Shown here piece after piece: positions 2 through 53,017 of a stretch of DNA of 57,160 bases (its first letter is position 1; the number at the start of each line of letters is the position of its first letter). A program made the position numbers and the translations under genes. Origin of the DNA: a virus; the IMG/VR virus record IMGVR_UViG_3300037493_005727, positions 133,091 to 190,250 of that record. One strand, 5' to 3'. The notes beneath the pieces are model-generated. The model saw only the letters and a list, made by a program, of their open reading frames with translations. It did not search any database and had not been told where the DNA came from.

Positions 2-379
2 CTGCAGGTCGTGGCTGGGCTCGAGAAGCTGGCCTTGAGCGTCGACGCTCAAACATCGGAGCAGGCGCAGCCTCTTCTGGCAGGAGCTTGTGACGAGCTC
101 TTCGAAACAGTGAAGCAAGCCGCCGCCGATCGCGGAGAGCATCTTACCAGCGCCCTGTGGGGGTATCGCGAAGCTCACCGGACCACTGGTGAGAAGTTCG
201 CCGCCGCGGCGGAAGAGACCGCTGAGCTGCTACAGAAGCTGGCCACCGCCACCTACGTAGACGAGGTTCTCGACGCCAAGCTTGAGAAATTGTCCGGAGA
301 CGAGTACGACGCGGCCCGCCGGGTTCAGTTGCTGGGTCGGGAATACGCAGTAAATCTGATGCGAGGACTCTTTGCGTAA
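2..379 (+). CDS. hypothetical protein, 5'-truncated by window edge (coiled-coil-like C-terminus)
   Basis: ORF 11..379 stays open upstream to the window start in the same frame. Composition is natural and Ala/Glu/Leu-rich, and its stop overlaps the start of the next gene. Confidence 0.4.
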   Translation: MQVVAGLEKLALSVDAQTSEQAQPLLAGACDELFETVKQAAADRGEHLTSALWGYREAHRTTGEKFAAAAEETAELLQKLATATYVDEVLDAKLEKLSGDEYDAARRVQLLGREYAVNLMRGLFA

Positions 380-2369
380 GGTCTACGAACTCGACACGCA
401 CTTCGCTACCGGCGAAGCGACGGTTCAGCCCGTGCTCCTTTGGGGCGCGAATGGCCGTCCCTTGCGTGAGCGGTTCACCAAGACGGCTAGCGAAGCGTCG
501 GACTACATCCAAGCCGTTGAGCCGAAGCCTGGGACCAGCATCGTGCTGGTTCTCGCTCTCGGAGCCTACGAGACCTACGATCTCAACCGCAACGGTGATG
601 GGTTCAATGAGTTCCCGTTCAAGAACGGATTCAAGCCTACGTGCGGTTGCTGCCAAGCCGACGGAGCCTGGGTCACGCAGCAAGAGGTTCTCCCGAACCA
701 CTACAAGTCTTTCGAAGAGCACGGCAAGATTTACCGTCACCACCAGAACAAAGATCCGCAGAAAGCGTGCGGCGACGTGCTCAAGTCGTTCTGGAATCCT
801 CAGATGCATCGGGTTGAGCTACTCCTGGGACTCAGGAATGAGCTCGCCCCTGATCTGGCGGAACGGATTGCTTCGGGAGAATACCCCGCTGTTTCGATGG
901 GGTGCCGCATCAAGTACGACGTCTGTACTATCTGCGGACACAAGGCTCCGACGCGGAAGCAGTACTGCGACCATCTGAAATTTGGGATGCGGCAAGTAAC
1001 GCCGAGTGGCCTCCGCGCCGGAGCCCTCAACCCGTCCCCGAAGTTCTTCGACATCTCTTTCGTTGTGAAGCCTGCCGATCTCACCGGCTACATGATGAAG
1101 AAGGTCGCTGACGAGAGCGCCTACAGCGTTCGTACGTCCGCGGAGCTCGGGGAATACCTGGACAACGTCGAAGAGAAGCGGGCGGCTATCCGTAAGATCG
1201 CCGACATCGACAAGATTGTTCGCGGGACCCCTGTCGACCACAAGACGTCGCCCATCACTGAGCAAGAGGCTCGTGGGATCCAGCAGTACCGCGACATGAT
1301 TCTCCCCGCGGTCAAGGGGATGCCCAACCTTGACGACGGGACTATCAAGGAGCTGTCGAAGCACCCGGTGGCCCAGGTGCTCTCAACTCTCTCCGCCGCA
1401 GGCGTCATCCTCACGACCCCGGAATTCGTGAAGATGATTGTTGAGCGCCTGGCCCCGGGCACGCAAATCCCCGCGGCGGCGCTCGATGGAATCGTCGCGA
1501 TGCAGGGGCACATCTTCGACCTCTTCGCGCGGCACCCGCAGCTGCTCGAGCAGCTTGGGTCTACGGGGATGTTCGACCGTAGCGCTAGCAACGTCAACCC
1601 TGAGATTGGGGTCATCGCGGAGAAGTACCTCGAGAAGCGCTCGACGATCACCGACTACCTGTCCCGGCAGCTCCTGCCGCCACAGCTTCGGTCGGAAGAG
1701 CCGATGTGGACGGACCCTCTTCACGTGAGCGACCCGGCTACCGGTGAGAGGTATGAGACGACCCGCGGCGCTGCTCGCGAAGCTCACGATGAGATCGCGA
1801 AGAAGCAGCTCGCCAAGCTCCTGGGCACTGGGGCTCTTCTCGCCGTCGGAGGCCGTGTAGCCGCTGGGCTGGTTCCAAAGCATTTTCGCCCGCTGACGTG
1901 GGCGACCACTGGGCTGCTCGGGGCACAAGCCCTTCGCCCCGATTACGGGTCTCAGTACCTTACCGACGAAGGCATCACGATCCCCACGCTCACCGAGATG
2001 CGGAAGCAGGGGTCCAACAAGCACGCCGACCTGTCGTCCGTGGGCCTCCCCATCATGGGGTCAGCCGCCCTCGTCGCAGCGCTTGGGCACGACTACCTCT
2101 CACGTCTTCGCAGCGGGCAACCTGTGAATGAGCCCGAGGCTCCTTTGGGGCGCCGAGTGCTTGATCAGCTTGGTTCGTTTTACGCGGACAACCCCGCTCT
2201 TGGGGTTCTTGGTACCTTGGGCGCCTACGGTGGAATTCGGCACGCACTCGGGAAGTTCGCGGGGTACGTTGAGACGCTGGGTTCTCCGTCTTCGTCGGAC
2301 AGCGTTCTCTCCCCCGAAATTGACATCGACGATGTCGTTACGAAAATCGGTAGCGTTCTCCTGAGGTAG
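372..2369 (+). CDS. large virion morphogenesis protein (portal or prohead-associated candidate), 665 aa, with a Cys cluster CxxC...C.H
   Basis: Long ORF with natural composition, first in the capsid gene order and immediately followed by a scaffold-like gene. It contains a CTICGHK...YCDHL zinc-like motif and a Gly-rich C-terminal region. No family could be assigned from the sequence alone. Confidence 0.6.
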   Translation: MRKVYELDTHFATGEATVQPVLLWGANGRPLRERFTKTASEASDYIQAVEPKPGTSIVLVLALGAYETYDLNRNGDGFNEFPFKNGFKPTCGCCQADGAWVTQQEVLPNHYKSFEEHGKIYRHHQNKDPQKACGDVLKSFWNPQMHRVELLLGLRNELAPDLAERIASGEYPAVSMGCRIKYDVCTICGHKAPTRKQYCDHLKFGMRQVTPSGLRAGALNPSPKFFDISFVVKPADLTGYMMKKVADESAYSVRTSAELGEYLDNVEEKRAAIRKIADIDKIVRGTPVDHKTSPITEQEARGIQQYRDMILPAVKGMPNLDDGTIKELSKHPVAQVLSTLSAAGVILTTPEFVKMIVERLAPGTQIPAAALDGIVAMQGHIFDLFARHPQLLEQLGSTGMFDRSASNVNPEIGVIAEKYLEKRSTITDYLSRQLLPPQLRSEEPMWTDPLHVSDPATGERYETTRGAAREAHDEIAKKQLAKLLGTGALLAVGGRVAAGLVPKHFRPLTWATTGLLGAQALRPDYGSQYLTDEGITIPTLTEMRKQGSNKHADLSSVGLPIMGSAALVAALGHDYLSRLRSGQPVNEPEAPLGRRVLDQLGSFYADNPALGVLGTLGAYGGIRHALGKFAGYVETLGSPSSSDSVLSPEIDIDDVVTKIGSVLLR

Positions 2370-4467: not shown

Positions 4468-5376
4468 ATGGCTTACAAGACCGAAACGCAGCAAGTCTCC
4501 GCCCAGTTCGTAAACTCGAACTTCGTCAAGAAGATCGAGGATGGGCGGATCAAGGAAGCAGCAGCCGAGGGCTCGGCGTTCATTCGCGAGTTCGTTCGCC
4601 AGGAGTCGTACGCGCGTGAGATTCTCACGCCCGTCCTGCTCCAGGATGACGAGATCGACCGTGACGAGAACACGGACGAGCCCAAGAAGATCGTAGAGAA
4701 GGAGCCCAAGTCGGTGGCCACCTTCGTGCAGTTCCAGGGAGCAGGTCCTCGGACCTGGTTCAAGGGACCGCGCTACTCGGTCTTCTTCGGCAAGACGGAA
4801 AGCCAGCACTTCACCAAGTCGAAGTTCCAGCTGATGACCTACCAGAACGACATCCGGAAGATGCTTTCGGACAACTCTGTGAAGGACATGGCGGACCAGG
4901 AAGACTCGAAGTGGCAGCAGACGGTCGACGCGCTCATCGCGGCGAACCCTCTCGAGCAGAACGTCAACGCTGGCGGGTTCAACTCCACCGCGTTCAAGTC
5001 AGGCTTCCAGAAGATGGTTGGTCGTCGCCGTCCGATCGGCAAGATGACCATGACCAAGGGCCTGTACTACGAGGCTCTCGATCTGGTGGCCACCAGCGTC
5101 GGTAACGACGTGGCGTCGCGGCACTACGACGACGGCGTGGAGAACGAGGAGAAGCTCTGGGGCTTCCCGGTCATCACGACCATCAAGTCGACCATCCACG
5201 ACCCGAAGAAGGCGTACATCTACTCGCCTGAGAACTACCTGGGCAACTTCTTCCTGCTCCAGGATGCGACGCTGTACATCAAGCAGGAGGCTGACACCAT
5301 CACCTTCTGGACGTACGCGGCCCCCGGCATCGGCATCGGTAACCGCCTGTCGATTCAGTCAATCACCTTCCCGTAA
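4468..5376 (+). CDS. probable major capsid protein (302 aa)
   Basis: It has the strongest RBS in the block (GGAGGAG). The position after the portal-like, scaffold and decoration-like genes fits a capsid gene. It is followed directly by a strong GC hairpin terminator, as is typical for highly expressed capsid genes. Confidence 0.55.
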   Translation: MAYKTETQQVSAQFVNSNFVKKIEDGRIKEAAAEGSAFIREFVRQESYAREILTPVLLQDDEIDRDENTDEPKKIVEKEPKSVATFVQFQGAGPRTWFKGPRYSVFFGKTESQHFTKSKFQLMTYQNDIRKMLSDNSVKDMADQEDSKWQQTVDALIAANPLEQNVNAGGFNSTAFKSGFQKMVGRRRPIGKMTMTKGLYYEALDLVATSVGNDVASRHYDDGVENEEKLWGFPVITTIKSTIHDPKKAYIYSPENYLGNFFLLQDATLYIKQEADTITFWTYAAPGIGIGNRLSIQSITFP

Positions 5377-5447: not shown

Positions 5448-5690
5448 ATGATCGTAACCGGCCCATCCAGAAGCACTGAGGTCTACGGTGAGACCCCGTC
5501 GGGCTTCATCAATGGGGTCAATGCGACCTTCCTCACGACGTTCCCCTTCCGCGCAAATAGTGAACGCCTGTACCTCAACGGCGTACGCCAGAAGCGGGTT
5601 AATGACTACGTCGTGATCCCTCCGGCTACGTTGGTCTTCGTTCTCGCTCCGAGAACAAACGACCATGTGCTAGTGGACTACCTACGATGA
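5448..5690 (+). CDS. hypothetical protein (80 aa)
   Basis: ORF whose stop overlaps the next start. Confidence 0.45.
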   Translation: MIVTGPSRSTEVYGETPSGFINGVNATFLTTFPFRANSERLYLNGVRQKRVNDYVVIPPATLVFVLAPRTNDHVLVDYLR

Positions 5691-5917
5691 CGCCCGGATG
5701 TTTCTCCACCGATAAGATAGGCTTAGCCTGCTACCTGATGATCAAGGGAGCGGAGCTAACCAGCATCCACGGAAAGAGCCGGGGGCGGGCTACGTTTACG
5801 TTCAAGCTACCCCCCGCGGAAGCAGTCACCCAGGAATTGGCCTATACTACGTCAGACCATTCAAGGTTCTTCGAAGCGTTCAAATACCTAAGAGGACGCG
5901 CCCTGCGGGGCGAGTAG
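5687..5917 (+). CDS. hypothetical protein (76 aa)
   Basis: ORF in tandem with translational coupling. Confidence 0.4.
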   Translation: MTPGCFSTDKIGLACYLMIKGAELTSIHGKSRGRATFTFKLPPAEAVTQELAYTTSDHSRFFEAFKYLRGRALRGE

Positions 5918-5956
5918 ACCCCACTTTACGTAGTAGCCCGACGCAGGAGATAACAC

Positions 5957-7513
5957 ATGGCGCGCACTTTCATTCGACAAGATACGCAGATCCGAAACTC
6001 AGACGTCTATGACGACACGCTCGTCGTAGGCTCAACTCTCGAGTCCGCCTCGACGGAGATCGAGACCGACCTCAACGCCATCCGCTCGCAGGCCAAGCGC
6101 GCCCTCTTCGCGGACAACGCGGGTGACTGGTTCGCGGACATCAACGTCCCCTCCGCGCTCGACACCGGCACCAAGCGAGGCATCACCAACCTGAACACCG
6201 ACCTCCACGACTTGGAGCGCAAGCGGGTGCTGGTCGCGGTGGACAAGTTCCTCACCGACATCACGGTCGGCGCGGTGGACAACTTCAAGATTCTGGCTCT
6301 CGGTGAGCTGCCCCCCAACACCACGGCGGCTGTCGGCGCGGTGACCACGCGGGGCACCGTCGCAGCGTTCCACACCGGCACCTTCGGGACGCACGCACTG
6401 GATGAGGTGTCGGGCTCCTCCGACATCACTCCGAAGAACCTCTGCAACATCGTGGACTCGGTGACGCACGACCCGATTCTGTCGAGTGGCCGCGTCGTCT
6501 ACGCCCTCTTCCAGACGGAGACGGTGACGGATGGGCACGCGATGACGGACACCACGCCCGTCCGCGCCCAGCTCTCCTTCGTGCGCCTGAACGCGGGCGG
6601 TACGGACCTCGAAGCCTGTCCCGCAGCCGACATCCAGACAAAGATCATCCACTACTCCGCCCCTGAGCGGAAGGCGTTGGAAGACCTCAACGAGCAGGAC
6701 TTCCTGCGTGGCGCGGTGACGGACATCGCCGCGGCAACCACCGTGACCCGGCAGGTCGCTTACAATAATCAGGGCACCACCCCGGTGGACCTCACCACCA
6801 ACGCGACCCTCGATCTTGAGGGTCCGGGGCTGACGTGGATCATCCGCGACGACACGCAGGCCAACCTCTTCCGGATTCTGGAGGGGAGCGCGGGCGGCAC
6901 CAGCGAGGTGCAGCTCGGCACCGACGTTGACGTGTTCAACGTGGACGCCATCGTCAACGACTTCGCGGAGGGCATCCGGGCAGATACAGGAGGTCAACGC
7001 ATCGATGTCGGTGTCAACGCCGGTGTCGTTGAGTCGACCGGCGCGAACGACCTCCGCATCCTCGGCGCAGCTGAATTGTTCCTGGATGACGGCAACCAGA
7101 CTGGCTCGACGTGGGCGCAGACGAATGGCATCAAGCTCTCCGACACTCAGGCGGAGTGGAACCTCTTCGAGACGAACTTCGGCGAAGTGTCCCTGCTCAA
7201 CGCCATTAACCAGGCGAAGAACACCTCGGCTCGCAACACCAAGATGTACGCCAACGTCACCGTGACCACGGACGCCAACCTCGATGTGAGCCTGGCGGAC
7301 GGCAACCTCGACACGGCGCTCCCGGCGATGAACGCTGGCAGCTTCCTCACCGACTACGACGTGTTCCTCAACGGAAACCTCCTCCGTCCTGGAGCCAACG
7401 CCGCGGCGAACAACGACTACTACCCAGGCACAACCATCACAGCTCCGGCGAAACTCAAGTTCGAGTTCAAGGTCAAGAACGAAGACGTTCTCTGCGTCAT
7501 TCCCTACGCATAA
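5957..7513 (+). CDS. large structural protein (518 aa), beta-rich Thr/Ala/Asp/Asn composition
   Basis: AGGAGA RBS with a long ORF. The composition is typical of virion beta-structure proteins (capsid, sheath or tail-tube class). The antisense 577-aa ORF is Arg/Gly-rich shadow. Confidence 0.65.
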   Translation: MARTFIRQDTQIRNSDVYDDTLVVGSTLESASTEIETDLNAIRSQAKRALFADNAGDWFADINVPSALDTGTKRGITNLNTDLHDLERKRVLVAVDKFLTDITVGAVDNFKILALGELPPNTTAAVGAVTTRGTVAAFHTGTFGTHALDEVSGSSDITPKNLCNIVDSVTHDPILSSGRVVYALFQTETVTDGHAMTDTTPVRAQLSFVRLNAGGTDLEACPAADIQTKIIHYSAPERKALEDLNEQDFLRGAVTDIAAATTVTRQVAYNNQGTTPVDLTTNATLDLEGPGLTWIIRDDTQANLFRILEGSAGGTSEVQLGTDVDVFNVDAIVNDFAEGIRADTGGQRIDVGVNAGVVESTGANDLRILGAAELFLDDGNQTGSTWAQTNGIKLSDTQAEWNLFETNFGEVSLLNAINQAKNTSARNTKMYANVTVTTDANLDVSLADGNLDTALPAMNAGSFLTDYDVFLNGNLLRPGANAAANNDYYPGTTITAPAKLKFEFKVKNEDVLCVIPYA

Positions 7514-7535
7514 CTCTTGAGGTAGAAGGTGCCCC

Positions 7536-8141
7536 ATGAGCGTCCTCAAATCCGAATTGAAGCAGCTTGTCACACAAGAGGTTGGTGTTCGGGTTGAGGA
7601 TGCTCTTGAGGGCGCTCGGAATGATTTGTTTGTGCTGGAAGGGCGCCAGGCCGGATTCTTCGAAGGCGCGAAGATCGCGGAAGCGCTCCTCGGTTTCGTC
7701 GACAAGGACTTGACGGAGGGGCTTCTCGAGCTCCCCGTTGCTGCTGAGGTGAAGAAGTACGTCACCCGCTGCGTTCACGCGCTGAACAACGCCGGGCAGA
7801 ACGCTTCGAACCTTCGCATTGAGCAGAATGGCAAGGTCAAAGCGCTCACCCAGACGGTGTCCATGCTCAGCGACATCGTTGAGAAAGAAAAAGCCAAAGC
7901 CGCCGCGATTCTTGCGGCAGAGGCCGCTCCCCCTCCAGAGAACGCACGAGATCGGGTGATGGGCGTAGCTCCTGTGAGCATCAAGGAACTTCGTCTCGCC
8001 GAAGAAGCGGTGACGGCTCCGGCCCCCGCCGCTCCGGAACCTGTCGCGGTTCCCGCGCCGGTCGCTGCTCCCCCGGCACCTCTCGTTCGCTTCTCTCCCA
8101 AGGGGCGCGGCGGGAGGAAATCGCGTGCCTCTAACTCCTGA
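7536..8141 (+). CDS. hypothetical virion-associated protein with a Pro/Ala-rich C-terminus (201 aa)
   Basis: The ORF has an APAPAAPEPVAVPAPVAAPPAP linker. Confidence 0.5.
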   Translation: MSVLKSELKQLVTQEVGVRVEDALEGARNDLFVLEGRQAGFFEGAKIAEALLGFVDKDLTEGLLELPVAAEVKKYVTRCVHALNNAGQNASNLRIEQNGKVKALTQTVSMLSDIVEKEKAKAAAILAAEAAPPPENARDRVMGVAPVSIKELRLAEEAVTAPAPAAPEPVAVPAPVAAPPAPLVRFSPKGRGGRKSRASNS

Positions 8142-8586
8142 TCGACGACATGGACCCCTTGAAGAAGATGAGGGTATCAATCTAAGCCCGCAGGCGGTTG
8201 TTCCAGCCGTCAACGGAGAGTTACGCTACGTCGCGGGAACAGGTTTTCAATTTTTCGATGAAGGTGTTCTTAAGGGACTCAGCGGTTCTGGCATCACCGC
8301 GCCGCAGCATGAAGTTCTGGACACGCTCGTCCATGATCTGTCGGAGACTTGCTATTTTGAAGTGACGCGCTCACTCGGCAAGGCGACAGCCCTCACATAC
8401 TGGACCTCCCCAGCGAAGACGATGAAAGTTCGTGAGACTCTCATTACTCGATCTCTGGGGAGAGTTTCTCAGATTGTAGAGAACCAGTACGACGGTACCG
8501 GTGCTCTTGTTCAAACCCTGACCACTGTGTTCACACGTGGCGTCGGTAATCGCGTAGTCTCCGCGCAGCTCACGGAGACGCCATGA
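8125..8586 (+). CDS. hypothetical protein (153 aa), in a locally AT-richer segment
   Basis: ORF with local GC of about 50% against about 60% in the flanks. Confidence 0.5.
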   Translation: MPLTPDRRHGPLEEDEGINLSPQAVVPAVNGELRYVAGTGFQFFDEGVLKGLSGSGITAPQHEVLDTLVHDLSETCYFEVTRSLGKATALTYWTSPAKTMKVRETLITRSLGRVSQIVENQYDGTGALVQTLTTVFTRGVGNRVVSAQLTETP

Positions 8587-9311
8587 CCACCTACGTCATC
8601 GCCGAAATTGACGGCCCGGTAGAGGCCAACATCACGGGGGCCGTCTTTCCGCAGTTGGCGGTAGCATTGGTAGCGCCTCTGGCGGTGTCCGTCGCTGCTG
8701 GATACTACGAGATCGGCGGCGTGCGGGGACAGTACCCGGGTGTTGGATCTATCGCTGTCACCGACAACGCGACCAACTACGTCTTCCTCAACAGTGCCGG
8801 TGCTCTCGTCATCAACACGACAGGGTTCCCGGGAGTAAATCACCTTCGCCTCGCCCAGGTCTTCACCTCGGGCGGCGTCATCCTCAACACCATCGATGTT
8901 CGCCCTTTCTTCACGGCGACTTCTCCTCAAACAGCTGACGATACATTCGTCTTCGCGGCGGGCGGTCTTGGGCTTTCGACGACTCCCCGCTTCCTGCCGT
9001 TTGGTCTCGCGTCGAACAACGCTCCAACGTCGCCCGTCTCTCTTCGAGCGGCGAGAGCGGGAACGTTTTCGAACATGCGAGTGCGCCACAATCTTACGGG
9101 CACGGGCGGCAACATCACCTATACCTTGAGAGTAAACGGGGTGGATTCCGTTCTCACAGTTACGGCTACCGCCGCATCGACGGGAGGGACTGATTTAGTC
9201 AACTCCGTTTTCGTCGCAGCAGACGACTTAATTGATCTAAGAGTCACCAAGGCAGCCGCCATCACAAACAGTCCTTCCGAAGTAACTGCGACTCTCGAAT
9301 TCAACATCTAG
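8583..9311 (+). CDS. fibre-like structural protein (242 aa); its C-terminal ~75-aa domain is paralogous to the C-terminus of 9324..10952
   Basis: GGAGA RBS. The C-terminus NLTGTGGNITYTLRVNG...DLIDLRVTK...SPSEVTATLEF matches NTAGTGASNLTFTLRKNG...DLIDLTVTK...SPSAVVASVEY. Confidence 0.6.
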   Translation: MTTYVIAEIDGPVEANITGAVFPQLAVALVAPLAVSVAAGYYEIGGVRGQYPGVGSIAVTDNATNYVFLNSAGALVINTTGFPGVNHLRLAQVFTSGGVILNTIDVRPFFTATSPQTADDTFVFAAGGLGLSTTPRFLPFGLASNNAPTSPVSLRAARAGTFSNMRVRHNLTGTGGNITYTLRVNGVDSVLTVTATAASTGGTDLVNSVFVAADDLIDLRVTKAAAITNSPSEVTATLEFNI

Positions 9312-9323
9312 GAGTAGAACAAC

Positions 9324-10952
9324 ATGGCTCTCACAATCTATCGATACCGAGCAACGGGCCCTGGGATCGGCGATCTCTCAAAAGAAGTTCCGAGTGCTGT
9401 CACTTTTTCAGCGGCCGGGCATCTGTACGTCGACATTCAGGTCGACGACACAGTTCTTCAGGATCTCAGCGATGCCATGGCCGCAAGAGGGTGGACCTTC
9501 GATTCCACCGCTCCGGCGACAACCCCGGCGGCTCAAGCCGCGTCTCTCGGCTCCGACGCCATCAACATCCTGTCGGGCGGCACTCTCGTCGCCAAGCAGC
9601 CAAGTCTGAACTTCGTCTCAGGCGCCACGGTCGTCAACAACGGCGGCGCTGGGCGAGTTGACGTCACCATTCCGGCCGGGCTGGCTCTTACCGCCAACGC
9701 CCCTCAAGGCGTTTCACTTACGGCGGCGGCGGTGGGTACGGGTACCGCTGCGGCCAAAGATGACCACGTTCACCTCTTGGCTACCGCGGCACCGAGCAAC
9801 ATCGGCACCGCCAACGCCGCAGGAACCGCGACTTCTTCAGTTCGCTCTGACCACGTTCACGCTCTTCCGTTTGCCACCGTGCAGACGGTGCTCGCAGGCG
9901 CAACCAGCGCCATCGCAGTCAATGCCCAGAAGATCACAGGCCTCGCGGACCCGACGGCTGCGCAGGACGCTGCGACAAAGGCTTACGTAGATGCCACGAG
10001 CCAGGGTCTCGACGTCAAGGCGTCGGTTCGGGCAATCTCGACCACCAACATCACGCTGAGCGCTCCGCAAACGATTGACGGCGTCTCGGTCATCGCGGGC
10101 GATCGCGTTCTCGTTGCCGGTCAGAGCACCGCCTCGGCCAACGGCATCTACGTCGTCGCAGCGGGTGCGTGGACCCGAGCTACGGACGCCGACACTTCGC
10201 CGAAGGTCACGGCCGGGATGTTTACCTTCGTCACAGAAGGAACAGCGAACGCCGACTCTGGTTGGGTGCTGACGACCAACGACGCCATCGTTCTGGGCAC
10301 CACCGCTCTCGCCTTCACCCAGTTCTCTGGGGCTGGGCAGGTTGTAGCGGGCGCTGGTCTCACGAAGACGGGCAACACGCTCGACGTCATCGCCAACGCG
10401 GACGCTTCCATCGTTGTCAACGCCAACGACATTCAGGTTGGCGTACTCGCGACCGATGGGCAGCACGGCAACCGGGGCGGTGGAGCTCTCCACGCCAACG
10501 CCACAACCTCTGTCGCGGGGTTCCAGTCTGGCGCCGACAAGACGAAGCTCGACGGCATCACCGCTCTGGCCTCGACGGACTGCCTCCTCTGGGGAAACTC
10601 CTCCATCGGCACCAGCACGACGGCCCGCTTTCTCACGCCCGGTTACACGGACAACAGCGCACAGACCTCCGCCGTTCAGTTCCGCGTCCCTCGCGCAGGC
10701 ACCATCCGGAACCTGCGTGTCCGCTCCAACACTGCAGGCACTGGCGCTTCGAACCTCACGTTCACGCTGCGAAAGAACGGAACGAACCAGACCCTGACCT
10801 GCACCTACTCGAACACGGCCCAGGACGGCTCCGACTTGGTCAACAGCTTCACAGTGGCCGCTGGCGATCTCATCGATCTCACAGTCACCAAATCCGCTTC
10901 TCTCTCGAACAGCCCCTCTGCTGTCGTAGCTTCTGTCGAATACAGCGCCTAA
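9324..10952 (+). CDS. fibre-like structural protein (542 aa), Ala/Thr/Gly-rich; its N-terminal domain is paralogous to 10971..11720 and its C-terminal domain to 8583..9311
   Basis: AGGAG RBS. N-terminal MALTIYRYR...ARGWTFDSTAPAT matches MAATVYRYR...ERGWVFDCTAPVT, and the C-terminal domain matches the upstream gene. Confidence 0.65.
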   Translation: MALTIYRYRATGPGIGDLSKEVPSAVTFSAAGHLYVDIQVDDTVLQDLSDAMAARGWTFDSTAPATTPAAQAASLGSDAINILSGGTLVAKQPSLNFVSGATVVNNGGAGRVDVTIPAGLALTANAPQGVSLTAAAVGTGTAAAKDDHVHLLATAAPSNIGTANAAGTATSSVRSDHVHALPFATVQTVLAGATSAIAVNAQKITGLADPTAAQDAATKAYVDATSQGLDVKASVRAISTTNITLSAPQTIDGVSVIAGDRVLVAGQSTASANGIYVVAAGAWTRATDADTSPKVTAGMFTFVTEGTANADSGWVLTTNDAIVLGTTALAFTQFSGAGQVVAGAGLTKTGNTLDVIANADASIVVNANDIQVGVLATDGQHGNRGGGALHANATTSVAGFQSGADKTKLDGITALASTDCLLWGNSSIGTSTTARFLTPGYTDNSAQTSAVQFRVPRAGTIRNLRVRSNTAGTGASNLTFTLRKNGTNQTLTCTYSNTAQDGSDLVNSFTVAAGDLIDLTVTKSASLSNSPSAVVASVEYSA

Positions 10953-10970
10953 CGCTGAGAGAGGATCAAC

Positions 10971-11720
10971 TTGGCCGCTACAGTCTACAGATACCGTTTC
11001 GTAGGAACTACTCTTACAAACGTGGCCAAGTTTGTCCCCGGGGCGGTGTCCGTCGGGGACATCGCTCCGGCTCAGTACACCGACTTGACCTGCGATGACA
11101 CCGTCAAGACGGACCTCGACAACTACATGTTGGAGCGTGGATGGGTCTTCGACTGCACGGCCCCTGTCACTTTCGTAGACCAAGCCGTCGCGGCTGACTC
11201 GCCAGCTCAGACTCTTGCCTCTGCAACGACGGTCATCGACATCGCTGCGGCTACCGCTCCAACGGCAGGGCAGGCTCTGGTAGCGACTGGGCCGACGACT
11301 GCGACGTGGCAAACGCCGTCAGGCTCTTCCATTCTGGTGAAGACGGCGCAGATCAACATCACGGCCAATACGACGACAAACCAGTCGTCGTTTCAGGACC
11401 TCCTCACACTCAACATCACCGCCGCTGGAGCTGGCTTCTTCTGCATCTTTGCCGACGGTGCCGTGTCCAACACCAACTCCAACGTCAACATGCGGCTTCG
11501 TGTTCTCCTCGACGGCGTGTCTATCGGCGGCGTGCAGATGCGTGTCGCCGCGTCCAACATCGCGATGGGTTTCGGCTTCAACAAGCGTGTCGCTGTCGCG
11601 GCTGGCGCCAGAGTCGTAAAGCTCCAGTGGGCTACCGCGAACAACACGATGCAGTGCCGCCCCGTCGCTAATGCTGACGCTGAGAGCGCGTCGCTACTCG
11701 TCCAAGAGGTCACCGACTGA
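10971..11720 (+). CDS. fibre-like structural protein (249 aa), TTG start; shares the YRYR N-terminal domain
   Basis: The ORF has an AGAGAGGA RBS before a TTG start. Its N-terminus is paralogous to 9324. Confidence 0.55.
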   Translation: MAATVYRYRFVGTTLTNVAKFVPGAVSVGDIAPAQYTDLTCDDTVKTDLDNYMLERGWVFDCTAPVTFVDQAVAADSPAQTLASATTVIDIAAATAPTAGQALVATGPTTATWQTPSGSSILVKTAQINITANTTTNQSSFQDLLTLNITAAGAGFFCIFADGAVSNTNSNVNMRLRVLLDGVSIGGVQMRVAASNIAMGFGFNKRVAVAAGARVVKLQWATANNTMQCRPVANADAESASLLVQEVTD

Positions 11721-12700
11721 TGACTACCTACAACTTCACCATTTCGACAGCCTTCCCTGCGGCCAAGGTGTCCTCCGACAGGCTCACTCGGGAGATTCAG
11801 GACTCGGACATCACCGTTGCTCTCGACGGCATCACCACGGCAGGCGACGCCTGTGCCATCATCTTCAAGGCGGCGCTCTCTGGCGGCGAGGAGACGACGC
11901 TCAACGGGCTGGTGGCGGCACACTCCGGCGAGCCCCTGCCCGACAACACGCTACTCAAGGTGAAGGAGTACACCTCCGAGGGAGTCCCTGCGCCCGTCGC
12001 AGCGGACGGCAAGCCCTTCGTCCTGCCCAACAGCTTCCCTGGCGAGGTGCTGGTGAACTTCACCGGGACCTCGGATCAGCTCTCTCCCCCGAAGCGATTC
12101 GCTGGCGGGTTGTTCAGCCTCCAGCAGGTTGGGGTTGGAGAGACTTCGCTCGAGCTCGACTTCCTCGACGGGGTTTTTCTCGCCGGTGGGCACGTCGACT
12201 GGGACGGCGGAAGCTGGGGAAGCACCGTCTACATGGAGCTCGTCGCCCCAGCGTCCACCGTCAAAGATCCTGCGTCTCCAGGGACCGGCAACTGCAACGT
12301 GGTTCCGACGGGGATCCCGGGGCTCAACATCATTGTCCCCGCCGCGGGCAACGGGGCGAAAGACATCGACGTCCCCATTCCCATCCCGGCGAACGACGAT
12401 GAGACGAACGCACAAAACGGCTACTGGACCTACTCAGAGCCGTGGATTGGCAAGGGAACGGTGTCCCCTTCTCCTGGCACCGGTAAGTACAACCTTTTCA
12501 CCGCACCGTTGGAGCTGGCGCATTTCGCTAAGCTTCATTTGTTTTTGCCTACTGGTCAGCGAGACATGATCGCTCCGGCTATCAAGCCGAAGTGGATTCT
12601 TCCGGAGTGGAAGATGAAGGTCCTCATCTCCAACACGGACGCCGCCAAGACTCTCAGGCTCAGCGTCGACCTTCTAATTGCCCGGAGAAAATCAGTATGA
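11720..12700 (+). CDS. structural protein (326 aa), Gly/Pro/Val-rich
   Basis: Its ATG overlaps the upstream stop (TGATG). Confidence 0.6.
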   Translation: MTTYNFTISTAFPAAKVSSDRLTREIQDSDITVALDGITTAGDACAIIFKAALSGGEETTLNGLVAAHSGEPLPDNTLLKVKEYTSEGVPAPVAADGKPFVLPNSFPGEVLVNFTGTSDQLSPPKRFAGGLFSLQQVGVGETSLELDFLDGVFLAGGHVDWDGGSWGSTVYMELVAPASTVKDPASPGTGNCNVVPTGIPGLNIIVPAAGNGAKDIDVPIPIPANDDETNAQNGYWTYSEPWIGKGTVSPSPGTGKYNLFTAPLELAHFAKLHLFLPTGQRDMIAPAIKPKWILPEWKMKVLISNTDAAKTLRLSVDLLIARRKSV

Positions 12701-12843
12701 GTGACTCAGCCATCATTGAAGCAGTTCCTGATGTACTTCCCGCCTCCGACCAGGTCGCGACGCACGCGGACCTGGAGGCCATGAGGAACAAGTTCCACAG
12801 CGACCTAGTGGGGCTCCGATCGAAGTCTACGAGCCAAAAGTGA
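12697..12843 (+). CDS. small hypothetical protein (48 aa)
   Basis: ATG after GGAGAAAA, corresponding to the track ORF 12592..12843 trimmed to its RBS-supported start. Confidence 0.35.
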   Translation: MSDSAIIEAVPDVLPASDQVATHADLEAMRNKFHSDLVGLRSKSTSQK

Positions 12844-16541: not shown

Positions 16542-16801
16542 ACAAGCTCGCCTACCAAAGCGGCTGTCTCGCTGCGGTGGCGGCGTTCAAGCTCGCGGAG
16601 TTCAACTTCGGCGTGACGGCGCGACCGGAGAAGAAAGACCGCATTTCGTCGGACAACGGGCGGCGAGCCTACGGGACGAATTTCACAGAACCTGGGCGGC
16701 AGAATCGATCAGTAGGGCAGGCCTTTGACGCGCTGAACTCTACGAAGCCCAGCGACTTCATCAACGCCGGTAACGAGGCGATGATCGGGACAATGGGCTA
16801 A
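16538..16801 (+). CDS. hypothetical protein (87 aa), GTG start coupled to the upstream TGA
   Basis: GTGA overlap. Confidence 0.4.
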   Translation: MNKLAYQSGCLAAVAAFKLAEFNFGVTARPEKKDRISSDNGRRAYGTNFTEPGRQNRSVGQAFDALNSTKPSDFINAGNEAMIGTMG

Positions 16802-17631
16802 TGGCGCTATCCATCGAAATCACGCGGCTCCTCCCGCTGTTCCCTCGAGGGGTGTTCCTCCAGTGGGATCTCATCAACCCCACAGAGGTGGGATCCTACT
16901 GTTTCAACATCTACCGCTCCGGATCCCCTGAGGGTCCGTGGGAAGCTTTGTCGCTTGGTGGTGTCGACAACTACAACTACAGCGATGTCCTTCCCACGGT
17001 GTCGACGCAGGACGCGGCGGACATCAACCAGCTCTCACTCACTCGAGGGATCTATTACCGCGTCGAAGCCATTCCCCCCTCGGGCACGGACAACAAGGTG
17101 GAGGCGGTCTCTATCGTCGAACCTCGCCTCGACGGCGTTCAGAGACTGCTGAAGAGGAAGATTCTCCGCGACGAGAGCCTCACGTTCAAGAAGCTCAACG
17201 GCGTCGAGATCGCCGTCGTCAAGCGGATGCACTGGGGGCCCCGCTGCACCAAGTGCTGGGACAAGACGACCAAATCGGTGACCCGCGCGAACTGCATCAC
17301 GTGTTTCGGCACCGGCTTCTCTCCGGGATACTTTGCTCCCATCTTGACGCTGGGACGCCGGGGCACGCTGCCCGCGGCCAAGCAACTGTCCCCGCAAGGA
17401 GTCTCTGAGTACCGCCCGACGCAGGTGACCATCCTTGATGCTCCGAAGGTGGACCCGGACGACGTGTTGGTGTTCCTCAAGGACAACAAGCGCTTTCTCG
17501 TGAAAGCGCACATTCAGACGGAGCTCAAAACAGTTGGCGTGCACCAGAAGCTCGAGGTGAGTGAGATCGCACGCAGTTCAATCGAGTATCGCTTGGTCGT
17601 TGACCCTGCGAGAATCCCCCCGTTGTTCTAG
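16801..17631 (+). CDS. structural protein with a zinc ribbon (276 aa)
   Basis: TAATG overlap start. It contains CTKCWDKT...CITCFGTG. Confidence 0.55.
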   Translation: MALSIEITRLLPLFPRGVFLQWDLINPTEVGSYCFNIYRSGSPEGPWEALSLGGVDNYNYSDVLPTVSTQDAADINQLSLTRGIYYRVEAIPPSGTDNKVEAVSIVEPRLDGVQRLLKRKILRDESLTFKKLNGVEIAVVKRMHWGPRCTKCWDKTTKSVTRANCITCFGTGFSPGYFAPILTLGRRGTLPAAKQLSPQGVSEYRPTQVTILDAPKVDPDDVLVFLKDNKRFLVKAHIQTELKTVGVHQKLEVSEIARSSIEYRLVVDPARIPPLF

Positions 17632-22749: not shown

Positions 22750-24303
22750 ATGGTGCCTGCCATGGCAAACTCAAAGCTGCCGCAGAGCAAGAACCATGGA
22801 AGCGCTGGAGCTTCTTCTCGCGGACGGTTTCTTGACAAGAAGTCGTCGAATAAGGGGTGGGAGATCTGCTCGGTCACCAATTACTCCCCGCAAGCACAGA
22901 CCTACTCGGTTGCCGCGGGCAGCGGCGCGCTTCTCTCCGACGTCCCCCGGATGGTGAACGACCCAGGAGAAATCAGCGTTCTTCCCCGCGGCACGGAGGT
23001 CGTCATCCACTACGAGCTCAACGGACGCCCGGTCATCCTCGGCGTGCTCAAGAGCGCGGTCTCCAACGCAGTCGAAGTGAACCCCGCCAGAATCAGTGAA
23101 GTCCGCGGCGTGGGCGGTGAAGACGGCGTGTACTCGCAGGAAGGGGATACGAGCACCAGCAGCAGCCGCCCTCCGAATGACCCCGTTGACATCATCTCGG
23201 ACGACTGGCTGCGCAAGGGCAAACACAACAACTTCGTGGGCGTCTTGTCCGGGGGCACCAACATCTTGTCTTCGAGCCCCATGGCGCAGATCCGTACGCA
23301 CGGGGTCAACGACATGGTGGAGGTGTTTGCCAACGTGTACCGGCACATCTCCGCCCTCGGGAACCTGGACATCAAGAACGACGGCGGCAAGACCTCACTG
23401 ACCTGGCGCGCAGGCGCTGACCAGCTCACCGAGAACGGCGCCAACGCGGAGAACTGGACGCTGCGTCTCGACGCAGGGGCGGAGGGAGACCTCTTCCGCT
23501 TGAGTGTCACCACCCCGCACAACAACACGCTGTGCGAGGTGCACATGAGCGCCGATGGTCGCCTGTCCCTCACAGGGGTCGCCGGGGTCGACATCTCCTC
23601 GGGGACCAACGGCACTGCTCGAGAAGACGTCGCGGCGAACAAGGAAGTCTCAGTCCTTGGGGACATGGCCACGCAGGTCAAAGGGGAAGTCACGGAGACC
23701 TTCGACGCAGGAAAGACCACCCTGGTTGCAACCAACGATGAGGTGTCCGCGGGCAACGACCTAAAAGAAACCGTCGGCCATGATCGGATGACGCACATTG
23801 GAAATCGGCTAGTCACCACCGTTGAGGGTGGTGGGCCGGTTCCTCCTCCAGACACAGGCAACCTGGCGATTCTCTGGGACGCCGTCAACGGGGGCATCGA
23901 GTCCGTGACCGGCAATCCCAAGAGCGGAGGGATCCCCACTCCGAAGCAGTCACAGAACTTCGTGAACTACGCGGGGGACTTCAACTTCGCCGTTCCGTCG
24001 ACCGCGAAGTTCAACCTTCTCTCTACGGGAAATGATTCGGTGATCCTCGGCGCAGACGGCGCGGCGACTTCCACAGACCAAGGCCATACGTTCTCAGTCA
24101 CCATGCCGCCGCATCACGTCTGCATGTGGGAGGAGTTCGAGAAGTTCGCCAACGCGGTCATTGAGTGGTGCGACTCCCACGTGCACCTGACCGCGGTGGG
24201 CCCCTCGGGGCCAGCCCAAGCGGGGGCTACAGGGCCTCTGACGGCGAAGGCCAAGGACAAGATCCCTCCTGTCAAAAGCACCCGCGTACTCGTCGGAGCC
24301 TAA
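22750..24303 (+). CDS. large structural protein (517 aa), baseplate or tail-spike-like beta-rich protein
   Basis: Long ORF directly after a terminator and a T-rich GGTATGG element. Confidence 0.6.
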   Translation: MVPAMANSKLPQSKNHGSAGASSRGRFLDKKSSNKGWEICSVTNYSPQAQTYSVAAGSGALLSDVPRMVNDPGEISVLPRGTEVVIHYELNGRPVILGVLKSAVSNAVEVNPARISEVRGVGGEDGVYSQEGDTSTSSSRPPNDPVDIISDDWLRKGKHNNFVGVLSGGTNILSSSPMAQIRTHGVNDMVEVFANVYRHISALGNLDIKNDGGKTSLTWRAGADQLTENGANAENWTLRLDAGAEGDLFRLSVTTPHNNTLCEVHMSADGRLSLTGVAGVDISSGTNGTAREDVAANKEVSVLGDMATQVKGEVTETFDAGKTTLVATNDEVSAGNDLKETVGHDRMTHIGNRLVTTVEGGGPVPPPDTGNLAILWDAVNGGIESVTGNPKSGGIPTPKQSQNFVNYAGDFNFAVPSTAKFNLLSTGNDSVILGADGAATSTDQGHTFSVTMPPHHVCMWEEFEKFANAVIEWCDSHVHLTAVGPSGPAQAGATGPLTAKAKDKIPPVKSTRVLVGA

Positions 24304-35993: not shown

Positions 35994-36068
35994 GCTTCGT
36001 TACCTCAGTTGGTAGAGGGCCCAGAGTAATGACCTGGGAAGTCGGGGGTTCGAATCCCCCACGAGGCT
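35994..36068 (+). tRNA. tRNA-like gene with canonical acceptor, D and T arms but an apparent 9-nt anticodon loop (AGTAATGAC); identity unresolved
   Basis: Acceptor GCTTCGT/ACGAGGC, D arm CCTC-AGTTGGTA-GAGG and T arm GGGGG-TTCGAAT-CCCCC. The anticodon stem CCCAG/CTGGG encloses 9 nt. Confidence 0.5.
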
Positions 36069-36071
36069 CTT

Positions 36072-36145
36072 GCTCCCCTAGCTCAGTTGGTAGAGCGTCG
36101 GCTGATTTAAGCCGCGGGTCCCTGGTTCGATTCCAGGGGGGAGCG
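36072..36145 (+). tRNA. tRNA-like gene (Lys/Ile-like body) with an apparent 8-nt anticodon loop TGATTTAA; identity unresolved
   Basis: Acceptor GCTCCCC/GGGGAGC, D arm GCTC-AGTTGGTA-GAGC and T arm CCTGG-TTCGATT-CCAGG. The anticodon stem CGGC/GCCG encloses 8 nt. Confidence 0.5.
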
Positions 36146-36829
36146 CTACTTCTTGAGAAGATGGGCTGCGATCAGCCCCGCCACAGACCCGAGGATTCCT
36201 GGGGCGGCTTTACGCAGGACCTCGCCTTTGTTGACGAAGCTCTGGTCAAGGGCCTTCGTCCCAAAGCCCCCAGGCGGCTTGAGCTTGAGCGCCGTTGTTT
36301 CAGTGGGCTTCAGAGCGGGACCTTTGGCGGCCAAGAACTGCTGCTTGTTGGCTTCGTCGAGTCCGTGGAGATCCCACAGCGCTTTCGAGGCAGGGCCGTG
36401 CGCGACACCAGGCCGCCGCATGTGCAGAAGGGCGTCGAACTGGTCCGGGTCTTGATTGACCAGGGTGTCGTAGCGGTCTGAGACGTGCCCCGGAGGAACA
36501 CCGCCAAGGCCCATCCGAAGATCTGCGTCGTAGTGCTGCATTCCGAGATGCCGAGACAGCTCCGACGCCATCTCGCTCTTCCCCGTCCTCGGCAGGCCGC
36601 CGATCCCAATGCGCGCCGTCGCGGGGTCTAAGTGTTTCAACAGGGGCGCGATTTTAGCCGCGTCCGAGATGATCTGTGGATGGATCTTCGCACCTCCGCC
36701 CTGTTGGAGCAGTTCGTTACGCAGGTCCCTGTCCAGTAGCATCTGAAGAGCGATTCCCCCGAGACCTCCAGCAACGGCTCCGAGTCCGTAGTGAAAGGCG
36801 GCAGCGGTCTTTCCTGCGAAATAGAACAT
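36146..36829 (-). CDS. P-loop NTPase/kinase-like protein (227 aa) with hydrophobic termini
   Basis: Walker A motif GIGGLPRTGKSE. It has a GAGGTG RBS. Its stop abuts the 3' end of the second tRNA-like gene, and it lies downstream of the leftward tRNA cluster. Confidence 0.55.
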   Translation of the reverse strand: MFYFAGKTAAAFHYGLGAVAGGLGGIALQMLLDRDLRNELLQQGGGAKIHPQIISDAAKIAPLLKHLDPATARIGIGGLPRTGKSEMASELSRHLGMQHYDADLRMGLGGVPPGHVSDRYDTLVNQDPDQFDALLHMRRPGVAHGPASKALWDLHGLDEANKQQFLAAKGPALKPTETTALKLKPPGGFGTKALDQSFVNKGEVLRKAAPGILGSVAGLIAAHLLKK

Positions 36830-36907
36830 GACACCTCAAGTTTAGGCCAGAGGCTAAAAATGAGCTGGGCATACTCGCCGTTGCTCTTCTCTTCTTCTTA
36901 TACCGCA

Positions 36908-36978
36908 CTGGGGCACGTGGACTCGAACCACGATTCTCAGAGTCAAAGTCTGATGTCCTGCCATTGGACGATGCCCCA
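36908..36978 (-). tRNA. tRNA-Gln (anticodon UUG)
   Basis: Cloverleaf: acceptor TGGGGCA/TGCCCCA with U1-A72, anticodon arm TCAGA-CTTTGAC-TCTGA and T loop TTCGAGT. Confidence 0.7.
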
Positions 36979-37060
36979 TCGGAACGGGGGGACTCGAACC
37001 CCCACGCCTTGCGGCACTAGATCCTAAGTCTAGCGCGGCTACCAGTTACGCCACGTTCCG
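36979..37060 (-). tRNA. tRNA-Leu (anticodon UAG), class II with a long variable arm
   Basis: Acceptor CGGAACG/CGTTCCG, anticodon arm CTAGA-CTTAGGA-TCTAG and variable arm TGCCGCAAGGCGT. It resembles E. coli tRNA-Leu architecture. Confidence 0.7.
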
Positions 37061-37064
37061 CTTG

Positions 37065-37137
<73 letters not shown>

Positions 37138-51229: not shown

Positions 51230-53017
51230 GTGGCTGTTCGGCTGCCCCTCGACGGTTCAGTTGTAGGGTACTGGGGCTTCGACGAGGCCCTAGAGACCGA
51301 TGCTGCCCGAGACGCGACGGCGAACGCCTTACACCTGACGGTCACTAGCGCAGCGTCTGCTACGCTTGGACGCGTTGGCGGCGCACGCGGGATGAATGGG
51401 TCTTCCTCATTCGCCTCGGTCGCGAACGCGGCGCTTCGGCTTACTGGCGACCTCGCCATCATCGGCTGGTTCAAACTGAATTCGGTCAACACTTCTGGAT
51501 CGTTTCTACGCTGCTTCGTGTCCTGCGCGGGCCCCACAAATGGGGACGGCGTGCTGTACGCCCTCTCGGTCAAGAGCAACGGCGCGATTGAGTACAGGCA
51601 CACGGCTTCCGCAGGAGAAGTGCTGGTCACTACAGCGACTGGAACGGTCAAGACCGCGCAGTTCTACTCGATAGCCGTACGGCGAGTAGCCAACGGGCCA
51701 AACCAAGATGTAGAGATCTATCTCGATAATCGCTTGGTGGCGAATAGCGCTGTTACGGTGAACGGGTCCCCCGTTTCAATGCCCGTTCCGCCGCCCGCGG
51801 CTAACGCCTCCGCCGTCTTCAGCGTGGGCCGTCTGCAGCGCGTCGCTGACTCGGCGTTTTGGGATGGGCTTGTTGACGAGATTTCCGTGCACAGCGTTGC
51901 GCGGGCCTACCAACCGTATTTGATCGCGGCGTATTACCAAGCCGCCCTACGCTCCGGGACTACCCAGCTTACTGCCACGGACAACGTCGTCGCGGTTTCC
52001 TCCTACGAGATGGGCTCTGGTGTTCGATGGTGGTGCGTAGAGCGAGATCGTGACTTGTACGTAGTGAAAGAGAGCCCCTTCGGTCAGTTCGGTTCTGAAA
52101 CTCGTTTGACTACTCCCGGTGGTGGCAACTCCTCCAACACTGGGCGTCCCGAGCTAGTCTACGACGCCGCGACCGATACCTTGTACGTGTTCTTCTTCGC
52201 AGGGAATCGGATCTACAAGCTAACCGCTAGCAGTACGGATGACCCTGCGACCATCAACATGCCGTTCACCGCAGATACAGGCGGCATCATCAAGTCGCTT
52301 GAAAACGTAGATGGAGGTCGCGTAGGAGAGGGTTCTGGGCAGAGAGATCCTCGCCCCGATGACGACCTCGTCTACGTCAACCGGCAACCCGTAAAGATCG
52401 GTTTTACGGACCCAGCTCTGAACTACGTCGGTGAAGGATCTGGTGACGTTCTTACGTTCACGCGGGGTTCGCCGAGTGCCCCGTCAATCGCCTTTGTTGA
52501 GCGCCCTTCGCCCGATGGGTTTGGTGTGTTTGTCGGTCCGAAGAACTCCCAAGAGACCGGCTACATTGTCTATCGCCTCGACGGGGGCATAGCCACTGTG
52601 CTTGGGACTCCGACGCTCCCATACCCCGGAGCGACCGCCTACTTCATGCCTGTCGCCCCCCGAGTACTGGGACGGGGGTACTTCGCTCGCGCCCTAGACG
52701 CGTCTGGTCGCCAGACTGACGTGGTCACTACTACCATCTACGACAACTTCAACTCGGGAGTCCTGGTTCCCGGTGGAGCACGGTGGGATTTTGGACGAGA
52801 CGGCGACCTTTCGGACTACGGGCTAGTTGGTGAGGGGTCAGCGCAGCGCCATCCCAGGGACGACGATTTTGTGTACGTCAACAGAGCGCCAGTGAAGTTT
52901 TCTACGCAGGACCCTGATACAAACTTGCTGGGTGAAGGCGCGGGCGGCCCCGGCGGTAGGGGTAACGCAGATGGCGCTGGTTCGTGGACCCAGAGCGGCA
53001 CGACGAGGATCATATGA
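51230..53017 (+). CDS. tail-fibre-like protein with an internal duplication (595 aa, GTG start)
   Basis: Repeated segment GEGSGQRDPRPDDDLVYVNRQPVK...DP matches GEGSAQRHPRDDDFVYVNRAPVK...DP. The composition is beta-rich. Confidence 0.55.
   Translation: MAVRLPLDGSVVGYWGFDEALETDAARDATANALHLTVTSAASATLGRVGGARGMNGSSSFASVANAALRLTGDLAIIGWFKLNSVNTSGSFLRCFVSCAGPTNGDGVLYALSVKSNGAIEYRHTASAGEVLVTTATGTVKTAQFYSIAVRRVANGPNQDVEIYLDNRLVANSAVTVNGSPVSMPVPPPAANASAVFSVGRLQRVADSAFWDGLVDEISVHSVARAYQPYLIAAYYQAALRSGTTQLTATDNVVAVSSYEMGSGVRWWCVERDRDLYVVKESPFGQFGSETRLTTPGGGNSSNTGRPELVYDAATDTLYVFFFAGNRIYKLTASSTDDPATINMPFTADTGGIIKSLENVDGGRVGEGSGQRDPRPDDDLVYVNRQPVKIGFTDPALNYVGEGSGDVLTFTRGSPSAPSIAFVERPSPDGFGVFVGPKNSQETGYIVYRLDGGIATVLGTPTLPYPGATAYFMPVAPRVLGRGYFARALDASGRQTDVVTTTIYDNFNSGVLVPGGARWDFGRDGDLSDYGLVGEGSAQRHPRDDDFVYVNRAPVKFSTQDPDTNLLGEGAGGPGGRGNADGAGSWTQSGTTRII

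Follow-up and report, generated by a model that had tools for sequence, protein, structure and literature searches.

What are two protein domains for when one of them closes the first two of three adjacent genes and the other opens the last two? This question is raised by genes A, B and C (Table 1), which lie in a 57,160-nucleotide stretch of viral DNA (IMG/VR record IMGVR_UViG_3300037493_005727, positions 133,091 to 190,250; hereafter the window). An earlier note had described them as a cassette of fibre-like genes built from shuffled paralogous domains: B and C share their beginning (the N-domain), and A and B share their end (the C-domain). We propose, at a probability of about 0.5, that the segment 5957..12700 is a portable receptor-binding island, most likely a tail-fibre island, in which the products of A, B and C are chained by the C-domain and the N-domain acting as a connector pair. 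The main new result, missed by the earlier note, is a rule of gene order, according to which a gene ending with the C-domain is directly followed by a gene starting with the N-domain.

Two shared domains of ancient origin

The paralogy between B and C and between A and B is genuine and ancient. In composition-adjusted BLASTP comparisons, residues 1-66 of B and 1-67 of C are identical at 32 of 67 positions (48%, E=3e-16), and residues 419-541 of B match residues 120-241 of A at 62 of 123 positions (50%, E=3e-33), while no common sequence was detected between A and C. Smith-Waterman scores lie 25.5 (N-domain) and 38.5 (C-domain) standard deviations above 1000 residue shuffles. The N-domain of about 70 residues is thus as the earlier note had it; the sharing of a C-terminal domain also holds, but its length is about 125 residues and not 75. 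The proteins are rich in threonine, alanine and serine, and a low-complexity Thr/Ala artefact had been named as the outcome that could overturn the proposal. We reject it with near certainty on the basis of the E-values, the shuffle z-scores (25 and 38), confident globular models and large independent families for both domains.

At the DNA level, the shared domains are only 50% and 54% identical, with third codon positions at 35-36%. This similarity is saturated, which discards a recent duplication, as the earlier note had concluded. Indeed, another contig (L001) carries genes A'-B'-C'-D' with the same internal paralogy at 50-62% identity to the window, and therefore the duplication is older than the split between the two. 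The mismatches are distributed over all four bases with no excess of adenine, in line with the reported lack of adenine-specific mutagenesis, and no direct DNA repeat above 31 nucleotides occurs within 5900-12800. A target of a diversity-generating retroelement was accordingly rejected, given the missing template/variable repeat pair (>31 nucleotides), the identity of 50-54% and the absence of adenine bias. The coordinates previously given for the genes are correct, and A, B and C are likewise called on a near-identical contig (L006). As for the local drops in guanine-plus-cytosine (GC) content reported before, the one at 8140-8590 is a minor dip (0.543, where the window averages 0.602; z=-1.95, among the lowest 2% of windows) that corresponds to the gene 8125..8586, but the one at 9324-9420 is unremarkable (0.557; z=-0.87).

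The fibre-like nature of the proteins, also claimed earlier, is borne out by family and structure matches and by predicted folds. B matches phrog_27782 (3.7e-48), phrog_2647 'head decoration' (4.9e-47) and phrog_11518 'tail fiber' (2.7e-40), as well as the PDB entry 9nx3_A 'Capsid decoration protein' (E=3e-11), for which no literature description was found. Its collar motif (KITGLADPT..DAATKAYVD) matches the tail fiber gp9 of PDB 23sh_r (E=4e-5). The central domain of B is widespread in phages, where it is labelled head decoration, virion structural or tail fibre. The 371 cultured-phage records that match B are limited to its residues ~174-403, and none of them reaches its N- or C-terminal domain. 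Within this region, residues ~190-375 are 40-64% identical to proteins of cyanophage PSS2, Gordonia phages and mycobacteriophages, the PSS2 'capsid decoration protein' being 64% identical to the central domain. Relatives bear SRADHxH and HG-RGGG-HA repeats.

AlphaFold2 models of A and C reached a predicted local distance difference test (pLDDT) score of 86 and 87, respectively, with values above 90 for the N-domain and the jelly-roll domains. The N-domain is predicted as a small alpha/beta fold (strand-helix-strand-helix-strand; pLDDT >90). The C-domain and the C-terminal tip of C are both modelled as TNF/C1q-like ten-stranded jelly rolls, a fold of trimeric fibre tips, and structural comparison matches them best with tail fibres and receptor-binding heads. 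A homology between the C-domain and the tip of C was considered and is not detectable (hhalign E=0.07). Searches of Pfam, PHROG, NCBIfam and PDB gave no sequence relative of the N-domain or of the C-domain, and nothing relevant came up when the profiles of both families were run against PDB.

Among 1.84 billion proteins, a profile search with the N-domain retrieved 295 cluster representatives, 83 of them at E<=1e-10. The domain begins at residue 1-5 in all but one of the best 150, in proteins of 59 to 1845 residues, and the single internal copy (P0107) is preceded by a different domain. What follows the N-domain is highly variable: the HG-RGGG-HA repeat in 23 proteins, the central domain of B in 15, jelly rolls of the type found in C in 14, the C-domain in 7, and further ConA-like, phrog_13925-type and other parts. 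Reciprocally, the C-domain follows many unrelated N-terminal parts and always occupies the extreme C-terminus, with a mean pairwise identity of 0.49 versus 0.32 for the N-domain. Its near-invariant residues are R136, R166-N170, Y180-G186 and K223 (numbered as in A). The N-termini of middle genes of the P0014/P0020 type gave a weak single hhalign match to the N-domain (E=5e-4, probability 31%), and a larger hidden Markov model (HMM) detects the N-domain in them. Extensive domain shuffling is therefore well supported, as previously claimed: the N-domain is fused to many unrelated distal parts, and two further proteins of the island, X153 and D (see below), take part through a swapped domain and a modular build. 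The N-domain itself is supported as a portable attachment module, which agrees with the N-terminal anchoring domain of the earlier note in being strictly N-terminal in ~295 representatives.

The N-domain contains no stretch conserved enough for alignment-based retrieval of loci. No match was found in cultured phages (tblastn with the consensus), a search of IMG/VR yielded one locus, and a degenerate DNA pattern gave 0 matches in IMG/VR. The 24 matches of this pattern in bacterial genomes were discarded as false positives, none of them matching the HMM. In loci L037-L060, the 'MPVYRY...DLD' pattern corresponds to a short conserved sequence in Methylobacter, Methylococcaceae (Methylococcales) and other Gammaproteobacteria, in a frame that contains stops.

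Gene order, mobility and a putative docking joint

We collected 26 metagenome loci solely through a peptide pattern of the C-domain and ran the HMMs of both domains on every locus. In all 26, the gene ending with the C-domain is directly followed by a gene starting with the N-domain; the downstream N-domain is detected by HMM in 25 loci, and at L016 and the second junction of L024 a divergent N-domain was recognised by eye. Starting from the N-domain instead, we reached four loci for which DNA was available (L003, L007, L061 and L062), and in each of them a C-domain gene heads the run. In total, 43 such junctions are found in 35 loci, with a spacer of -13 to +22 nucleotides in 42 of the 43 and often overlapping stop and start codons. 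The chains obey a simple grammar: one gene with any beginning and a C-domain, then zero to two genes with both domains, and then one to three genes with an N-domain and another end. The longest chain comprises four genes (L025). A C-domain gene is never the last of its locus and, except in L062, exactly one N-domain gene follows it. In L008, L009 and L010, both domains are missing according to the HMMs.

The block that holds these genes moves between unrelated phage backbones and behaves as a swap-prone island with conserved flanks. The order of the 518-, 201- and 153-residue genes, A and B (Table 1) is found in L005 at 40-59% identity (59% for the 518-residue protein), and the ENA contig ERZ1426824 matches it by gene sizes only. 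L006 keeps this order too, and its 518-residue protein is 97% identical to that of the window. In L005, the block is preceded by baseplate genes (Phage_base_V, GPW_gp25 and the wedge subunit phrog_219). The capsid protein of L008 is 96% identical and its flanking genes 93-95% identical to those of the window, and in between A-B-C is replaced by unrelated genes of 465 and 250 residues; in L010, the slot is occupied by a 1602-residue PTL_trimer/pectinesterase-like spike. Such swapping is the behaviour of a host-range island. The comparative genomics of the cassette that the earlier note had proposed thus uncovers extensive exchange of genes and modules among relatives, and the idea of a host-range module proves largely right. 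The unit is nevertheless larger than the one first described, as it extends over 5957..12700 and includes X153 and D in the same module exchange.

How could two domains generate such an order? In the mechanism that we favour, the C-domain jelly roll at the end of A and B would be a docking platform (socket), and the N-domain at the start of B and C would be the plug that fixes the next-encoded protein to it. A would carry B and B would carry C, so that gene order would be physical order, and the jelly roll of C itself would form the variable receptor-binding tip. Should the plugs lack selectivity, one socket may instead take either B or C as its partner. Segments and tips would be gained or lost by inserting or replacing whole genes between connector modules, with a change of reach and host range. 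We infer the docking of the N-domain on the C-domain from the gene order and from the fact that the two domains are present or absent together; the proteins would be trimeric, sit on the tail and bind a receptor. The C-domain fits a connector better than a host-range tip because it is the most conserved module, lies at the extreme C-terminus and is never last in a locus; for the same reasons, its earlier description as a swapped distal receptor or lectin domain of A and B is not supported and is probably wrong. A connector with variable tips also fits since terminal domains are highly diverse next to the more conserved C-domain, the variable parts of the chains being the C-terminal portions of the last genes, as in C. 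The more detailed picture, in which a trimeric TNF-like socket and a 70-residue plug are a portable and reusable pair that builds fibres of two to four segments with alternative tips, is tentative and in our opinion falls slightly short of even odds.

Several observations weigh against this mechanism. In L062 (3150..6636), three consecutive N-domain genes with similar jelly-roll tips and no C-domain come after a single C-domain gene. A strict one-to-one linear chain is therefore not universal; alternative tips on one socket, as this locus suggests, or non-selective plugs are possible. No fused C-domain/N-domain protein (a 'Rosetta stone') is present among the 311 retrieved proteins. Co-evolution between the two domains gives a weak signal (Mantel r=0.18, p=0.0075). 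Within middle genes, the correlation of the N-domain with the C-domain upstream (r=0.41) barely exceeds that with the C-domain of its own gene (r=0.35), a result that linkage alone could yield. The sample amounts to ~35 loci, some of them near-identical (L012/L013, window/L006), and all relatives are uncultured. Finally, the central domain of B is called 'capsid/head decoration' in some records, and in the window the block comes after the capsid gene and not after baseplate genes, a position that it also has in L006 and L008.

The reading of the earlier note was that of a common anchor. Each of B and C would use its N-domain to bind, independently of the other, one common site on the virion (the baseplate or the 518-residue protein), the C-domain would be a receptor-binding tip, and the adjacency of C-domain and N-domain would reflect inherited gene order or recombination junctions at conserved sequences. 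A strictly N-terminal domain with many distal parts does resemble the known anchors of receptor-binding proteins (PMC12692247), the C-domain has a fold shared with many fibre tips, and both the three N-domain genes per C-domain gene in L062 and the weak co-evolution signal count in its favour. Yet this leaves unexplained that the C-domain is never terminal (26/26 and 4/4 loci), that it is paired one-to-one with the N-domain in all chains but one, and that both domains are jointly lost in close relatives, and it makes the supposed tip the most conserved module. Besides, a single common site is unlikely given the variety of unrelated N-terminal parts in the first genes of the chains and the unrelated backbones that harbour them. 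On balance, we find a common anchor unlikely, although it is the most probable of the alternatives.

The proteins could also be head fibres or a capsid decoration, which may mediate loose adhesion to surfaces or cells. This is what the position of the island directly after the capsid gene 4468..5376 evokes, together with the matches of the central domain of B to phrog_2647, the PSS2 capsid decoration protein and PDB 9nx3_A; the jelly-roll fold is also known in some trimeric cement proteins. However, baseplate genes precede the block in L005, annotations in other phages make the central domain of B a tail fibre, tail fibres and receptor-binding heads rank best among the structural matches, and L010 has a tailspike-like protein in the slot. 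No capsid-binding domain is recognisable. A tail location is more likely than a head location because of the baseplate context of L005, the fibre-tip folds and the L010 spike in the same slot. A head decoration thus appears improbable, and the connector rule would hold in either place. Another role for the downstream genes would be in assembly. The gene of a fibre chaperone typically lies directly after that of the fibre, and the chaperone attaches to the C-terminal tip of the fibre. The N-domain proteins could accordingly be non-structural factors like Tfa or T4 gp38, acting on the C-domain during folding (see Pam3 for a fibre chaperone; PMC9608196), and their place directly downstream, at tight or overlapping junctions, is the usual one for chaperone genes. 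It is hard to reconcile with this role that N-domain proteins reach 1845 residues and include fibre repeats, the fibre central domain and jelly-roll tips, or that middle genes bear both domains, for which a chaperone would have no reason; we regard it as very improbable.

Layout of the island and its genomic surroundings

The features of the island are listed in Table 1.

Table 1. Genes, domains and junctions of the island 5957..12700 (window coordinates; aa, amino acids; nt, nucleotides).
Feature	Coordinates	Strand	Description
518-aa conserved protein	5957..7513	+	Heads the island; first in the conserved order 518/201/153/A/B
201-aa helical protein	7536..8141	+	Pro/Ala-rich stretch and basic C-terminal tail (KGRGGRKSRASNS); conserved second island gene
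X153, 153-aa protein	8125..8586	+	N-terminal ~55-74 aa conserved; C-terminal domain (about nt 8257-8583) exchangeable
Gene A, 242 aa, chain gene 1	8583..9311	+	Own beta N-terminal domain aa 22-108 (nt 8646-8906); C-domain aa 116-242 (nt 8928-9308)
Spacer, A stop to B start, 12 nt	9312..9323	.	First C-domain/N-domain junction
Gene B, 542 aa, middle chain gene	9324..10952	+	N-domain aa 1-70 (nt 9324-9533); C-domain aa 416-542 (nt 10569-10949); both HMM-detected
Gene B interior			Fibre linkers; collar motif KITGLADPTAAQDAATKAYVD; central domain aa ~190-345 (nt 9891-10358); HG-RGGG-HA repeat
Spacer, B stop to C start, 18 nt	10953..10970	.	Second C-domain/N-domain junction
Gene C, 249 aa, terminal chain gene	10971..11720	+	N-domain aa 1-70 (nt 10971-11180); linker ASATTVIDI..ATWQTP; jelly-roll tip aa 116-249 (nt 11316-11717)
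Gene D, 326 aa, modular	11720..12700	+	Next after the terminal fibre gene; 62% identity with the gene following C' in L001

The 518-residue protein has more than 1177 homologues, often at ~60-80% identity, all from uncultured sources and on contigs of up to 376 kb; a second length class of the family (~640 residues) results from an insertion of ~115 residues near residue 100. No match was obtained in Pfam, PHROG, NCBIfam or PDB. In L005, its homologue comes directly after the baseplate wedge gene (phrog_219, E=2e-38), and the protein may be a baseplate-proximal or fibre-base component. A role as sheath protein was considered and set aside, as there is no match to a sheath family and the L005 copy follows the baseplate wedge gene. 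The 201-residue protein gave no meaningful family match; homologues occupy the same position in L005 (54%), L008 (63%), L009 and L010, and proteins of similar make-up are located upstream of fibre chains in unrelated loci (L021 3261..3665, L011 4896..5555).

X153 starts with a GTG codon inside the end of the preceding gene and is left uncalled on the 97%-identical L006 (3324..3782). Although gene callers can miss it, the gene is real, since its product is conserved in L005, L008, L009 and L010, namely in its N-terminal part. At its C-terminus, it shares 59% identity with the distal domain of two N-domain proteins, P0052 and L007 10001..10753. At the other end of the island, the N-terminal ~95 residues of D are found again in L003, L009, L010 and L027, each time in the gene next to the last receptor-binding gene on its downstream side, and its residues 89-326 are 78% identical to a 246-residue protein of L008. 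D has no match to families, PDB or cultured phages, and the possibility that it is a hidden N-domain protein was rejected for want of any relationship to the N-domain. Two small genes, 5448..5690 (80 residues) and 5687..5917 (76 residues), lie in what looks like a gap between the capsid gene and the island. Relatives of the latter product show a weak DUF5659 match, and a 'V(F/Y)LNG...DY' type motif is common to the former and to the C-terminus of the 518-residue protein.

The window has ~60% GC and almost no matches in protein-family libraries. Its head module includes a protease-like protein of 665 residues (372..2369; phrog_18299), which is 33% identical to a structural protein of Salmonella phage Arash, scaffold-like proteins, and the 302-residue product of 4468..5376, which over 95% of its length shares 37% identity with the protein annotated as major capsid protein in Arash. 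A structural protein of Arash is also matched by 16801..17631. Arash is a myovirus of 180 kb (PMC10585845), and L008, whose capsid protein was compared above with the product of 4468..5376, is a metagenome contig of 187 kb. On these sequence similarities, the window is probably a piece of an Arash-like, uncultured phage of ~180-190 kb. The baseplate genes of L005 show no similarity to anything in the window, apart from the tip of the 517-residue product of 22750..24303, which also matches the Phage_base_V protein of L005. This product is likely a tail spike because of a weak match to the C-terminal trimerisation region of T4 gp5. Far from the island, 51230..53017 (595 residues) encodes a Laminin_G_3 domain. 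A cluster of five tRNA genes is found on both strands of 35994..37137 (Ile-AAT, one with an aberrant two-base anticodon call, Gln, Leu and Thr). Patatin-like phospholipase genes are present a few genes downstream of the fibre genes in three loci that are unrelated to one another, L002 (18861..19685), L003 (2367..3305) and L010 (19040..19909).

The putative joint among known receptor-binding systems

Phage host range is set by receptor-binding proteins, and its engineering requires knowledge of exchangeable joints. If the docking of N-domain on C-domain is real, it would provide a compact and iterable joint for the exchange of receptor-binding modules, relevant to the engineering of host range, and a natural plug-and-play system for changing it. 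The connector would be used with many shafts and tips (TNF-like lectin, ConA-like, X153-type, phrog_13925-type and long repeat fibres) and be present in at least several hundred protein clusters of uncultured phages. It would also explain an annotation rule, in which a gene ending with RVRHN..YTLRVNG..VTK is followed by a gene starting with M-x-V-YRY.

Segmented fibres offer a first comparison. In the long tail fibre of T4-like phages, consecutive genes encode consecutive end-to-end segments, and the last small protein sits N-terminally on the tip of the previous trimer and bears the receptor-binding surface. This fibre consists of gp34-gp35-gp36-gp37, with gp38 as tip adhesin in the T2/S16/PP01 type (PMC12892980, PMC6957217). 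The chains described here appear alike in a putative segmentation, read from the order of the genes. However, T4 uses different joints at each junction, whereas here one repeated pair would serve all of them and the number of segments would vary from two to four. A, B and C have no family or PDB match to T4 gp34-gp38. The long tail fibre protein gp34 of cyanophage A-1(L) (PDB 8kec; PMC10966104) differs in forming a single-gene fibre with no known partner of the N-domain type, and it gave no significant sequence match with the family profile. C1q/TNF-like trimeric tips, such as those of BclA, C1q, TNF ligands, a Photorhabdus TNF-like lectin and the receptor-binding heads of lactococcal phages, have the fold that is predicted for the C-domain and for the tip of C. 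No sequence homology was detected between these two domains and any solved protein and, in contrast to such ligand-binding tips, the C-domain appears to be a connector.

A further parallel in organisation is offered by the branched receptor-binding systems of the Klebsiella podophages KP32, K11, KP34 and their relatives (PMC6872550, PMC13352976, PMC8262889). In these, receptor-binding proteins of adjacent genes mount on one another, with a conserved N-terminal docking element on the secondary protein, variable distal modules for specificity and an exchange of entire modules from phage to phage; the present chains would be organised alike. In terms of sequence, a conserved N-terminal domain and strict adjacency are present here as well, the element being apparently a 70-residue domain and not a peptide. 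In the Klebsiella systems, an N-proximal T4gp10-like branching domain serves as platform for a short peptide as plug, whereas the models place the putative platform in a C-terminal TNF/C1q-like jelly roll and the putative plug in a folded domain of ~70 residues. The two kinds of system showed no relation in sequence, and no match to a T4gp10-like branching domain was found for A, B or C in Pfam, PHROG or NCBIfam. The chains, as read from the genes, also differ in being iterated over up to four genes.

To conclude, the connector proposed here would be analogous to those of the T4 fibre and the Klebsiella systems, with a putative N-terminal plug on the protein encoded by the preceding gene, and would differ from them in the connector pair that is used. 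Modular receptor-binding systems are known; the present one would stand apart from them by a different, iterable pair drawn from two undescribed domain families.

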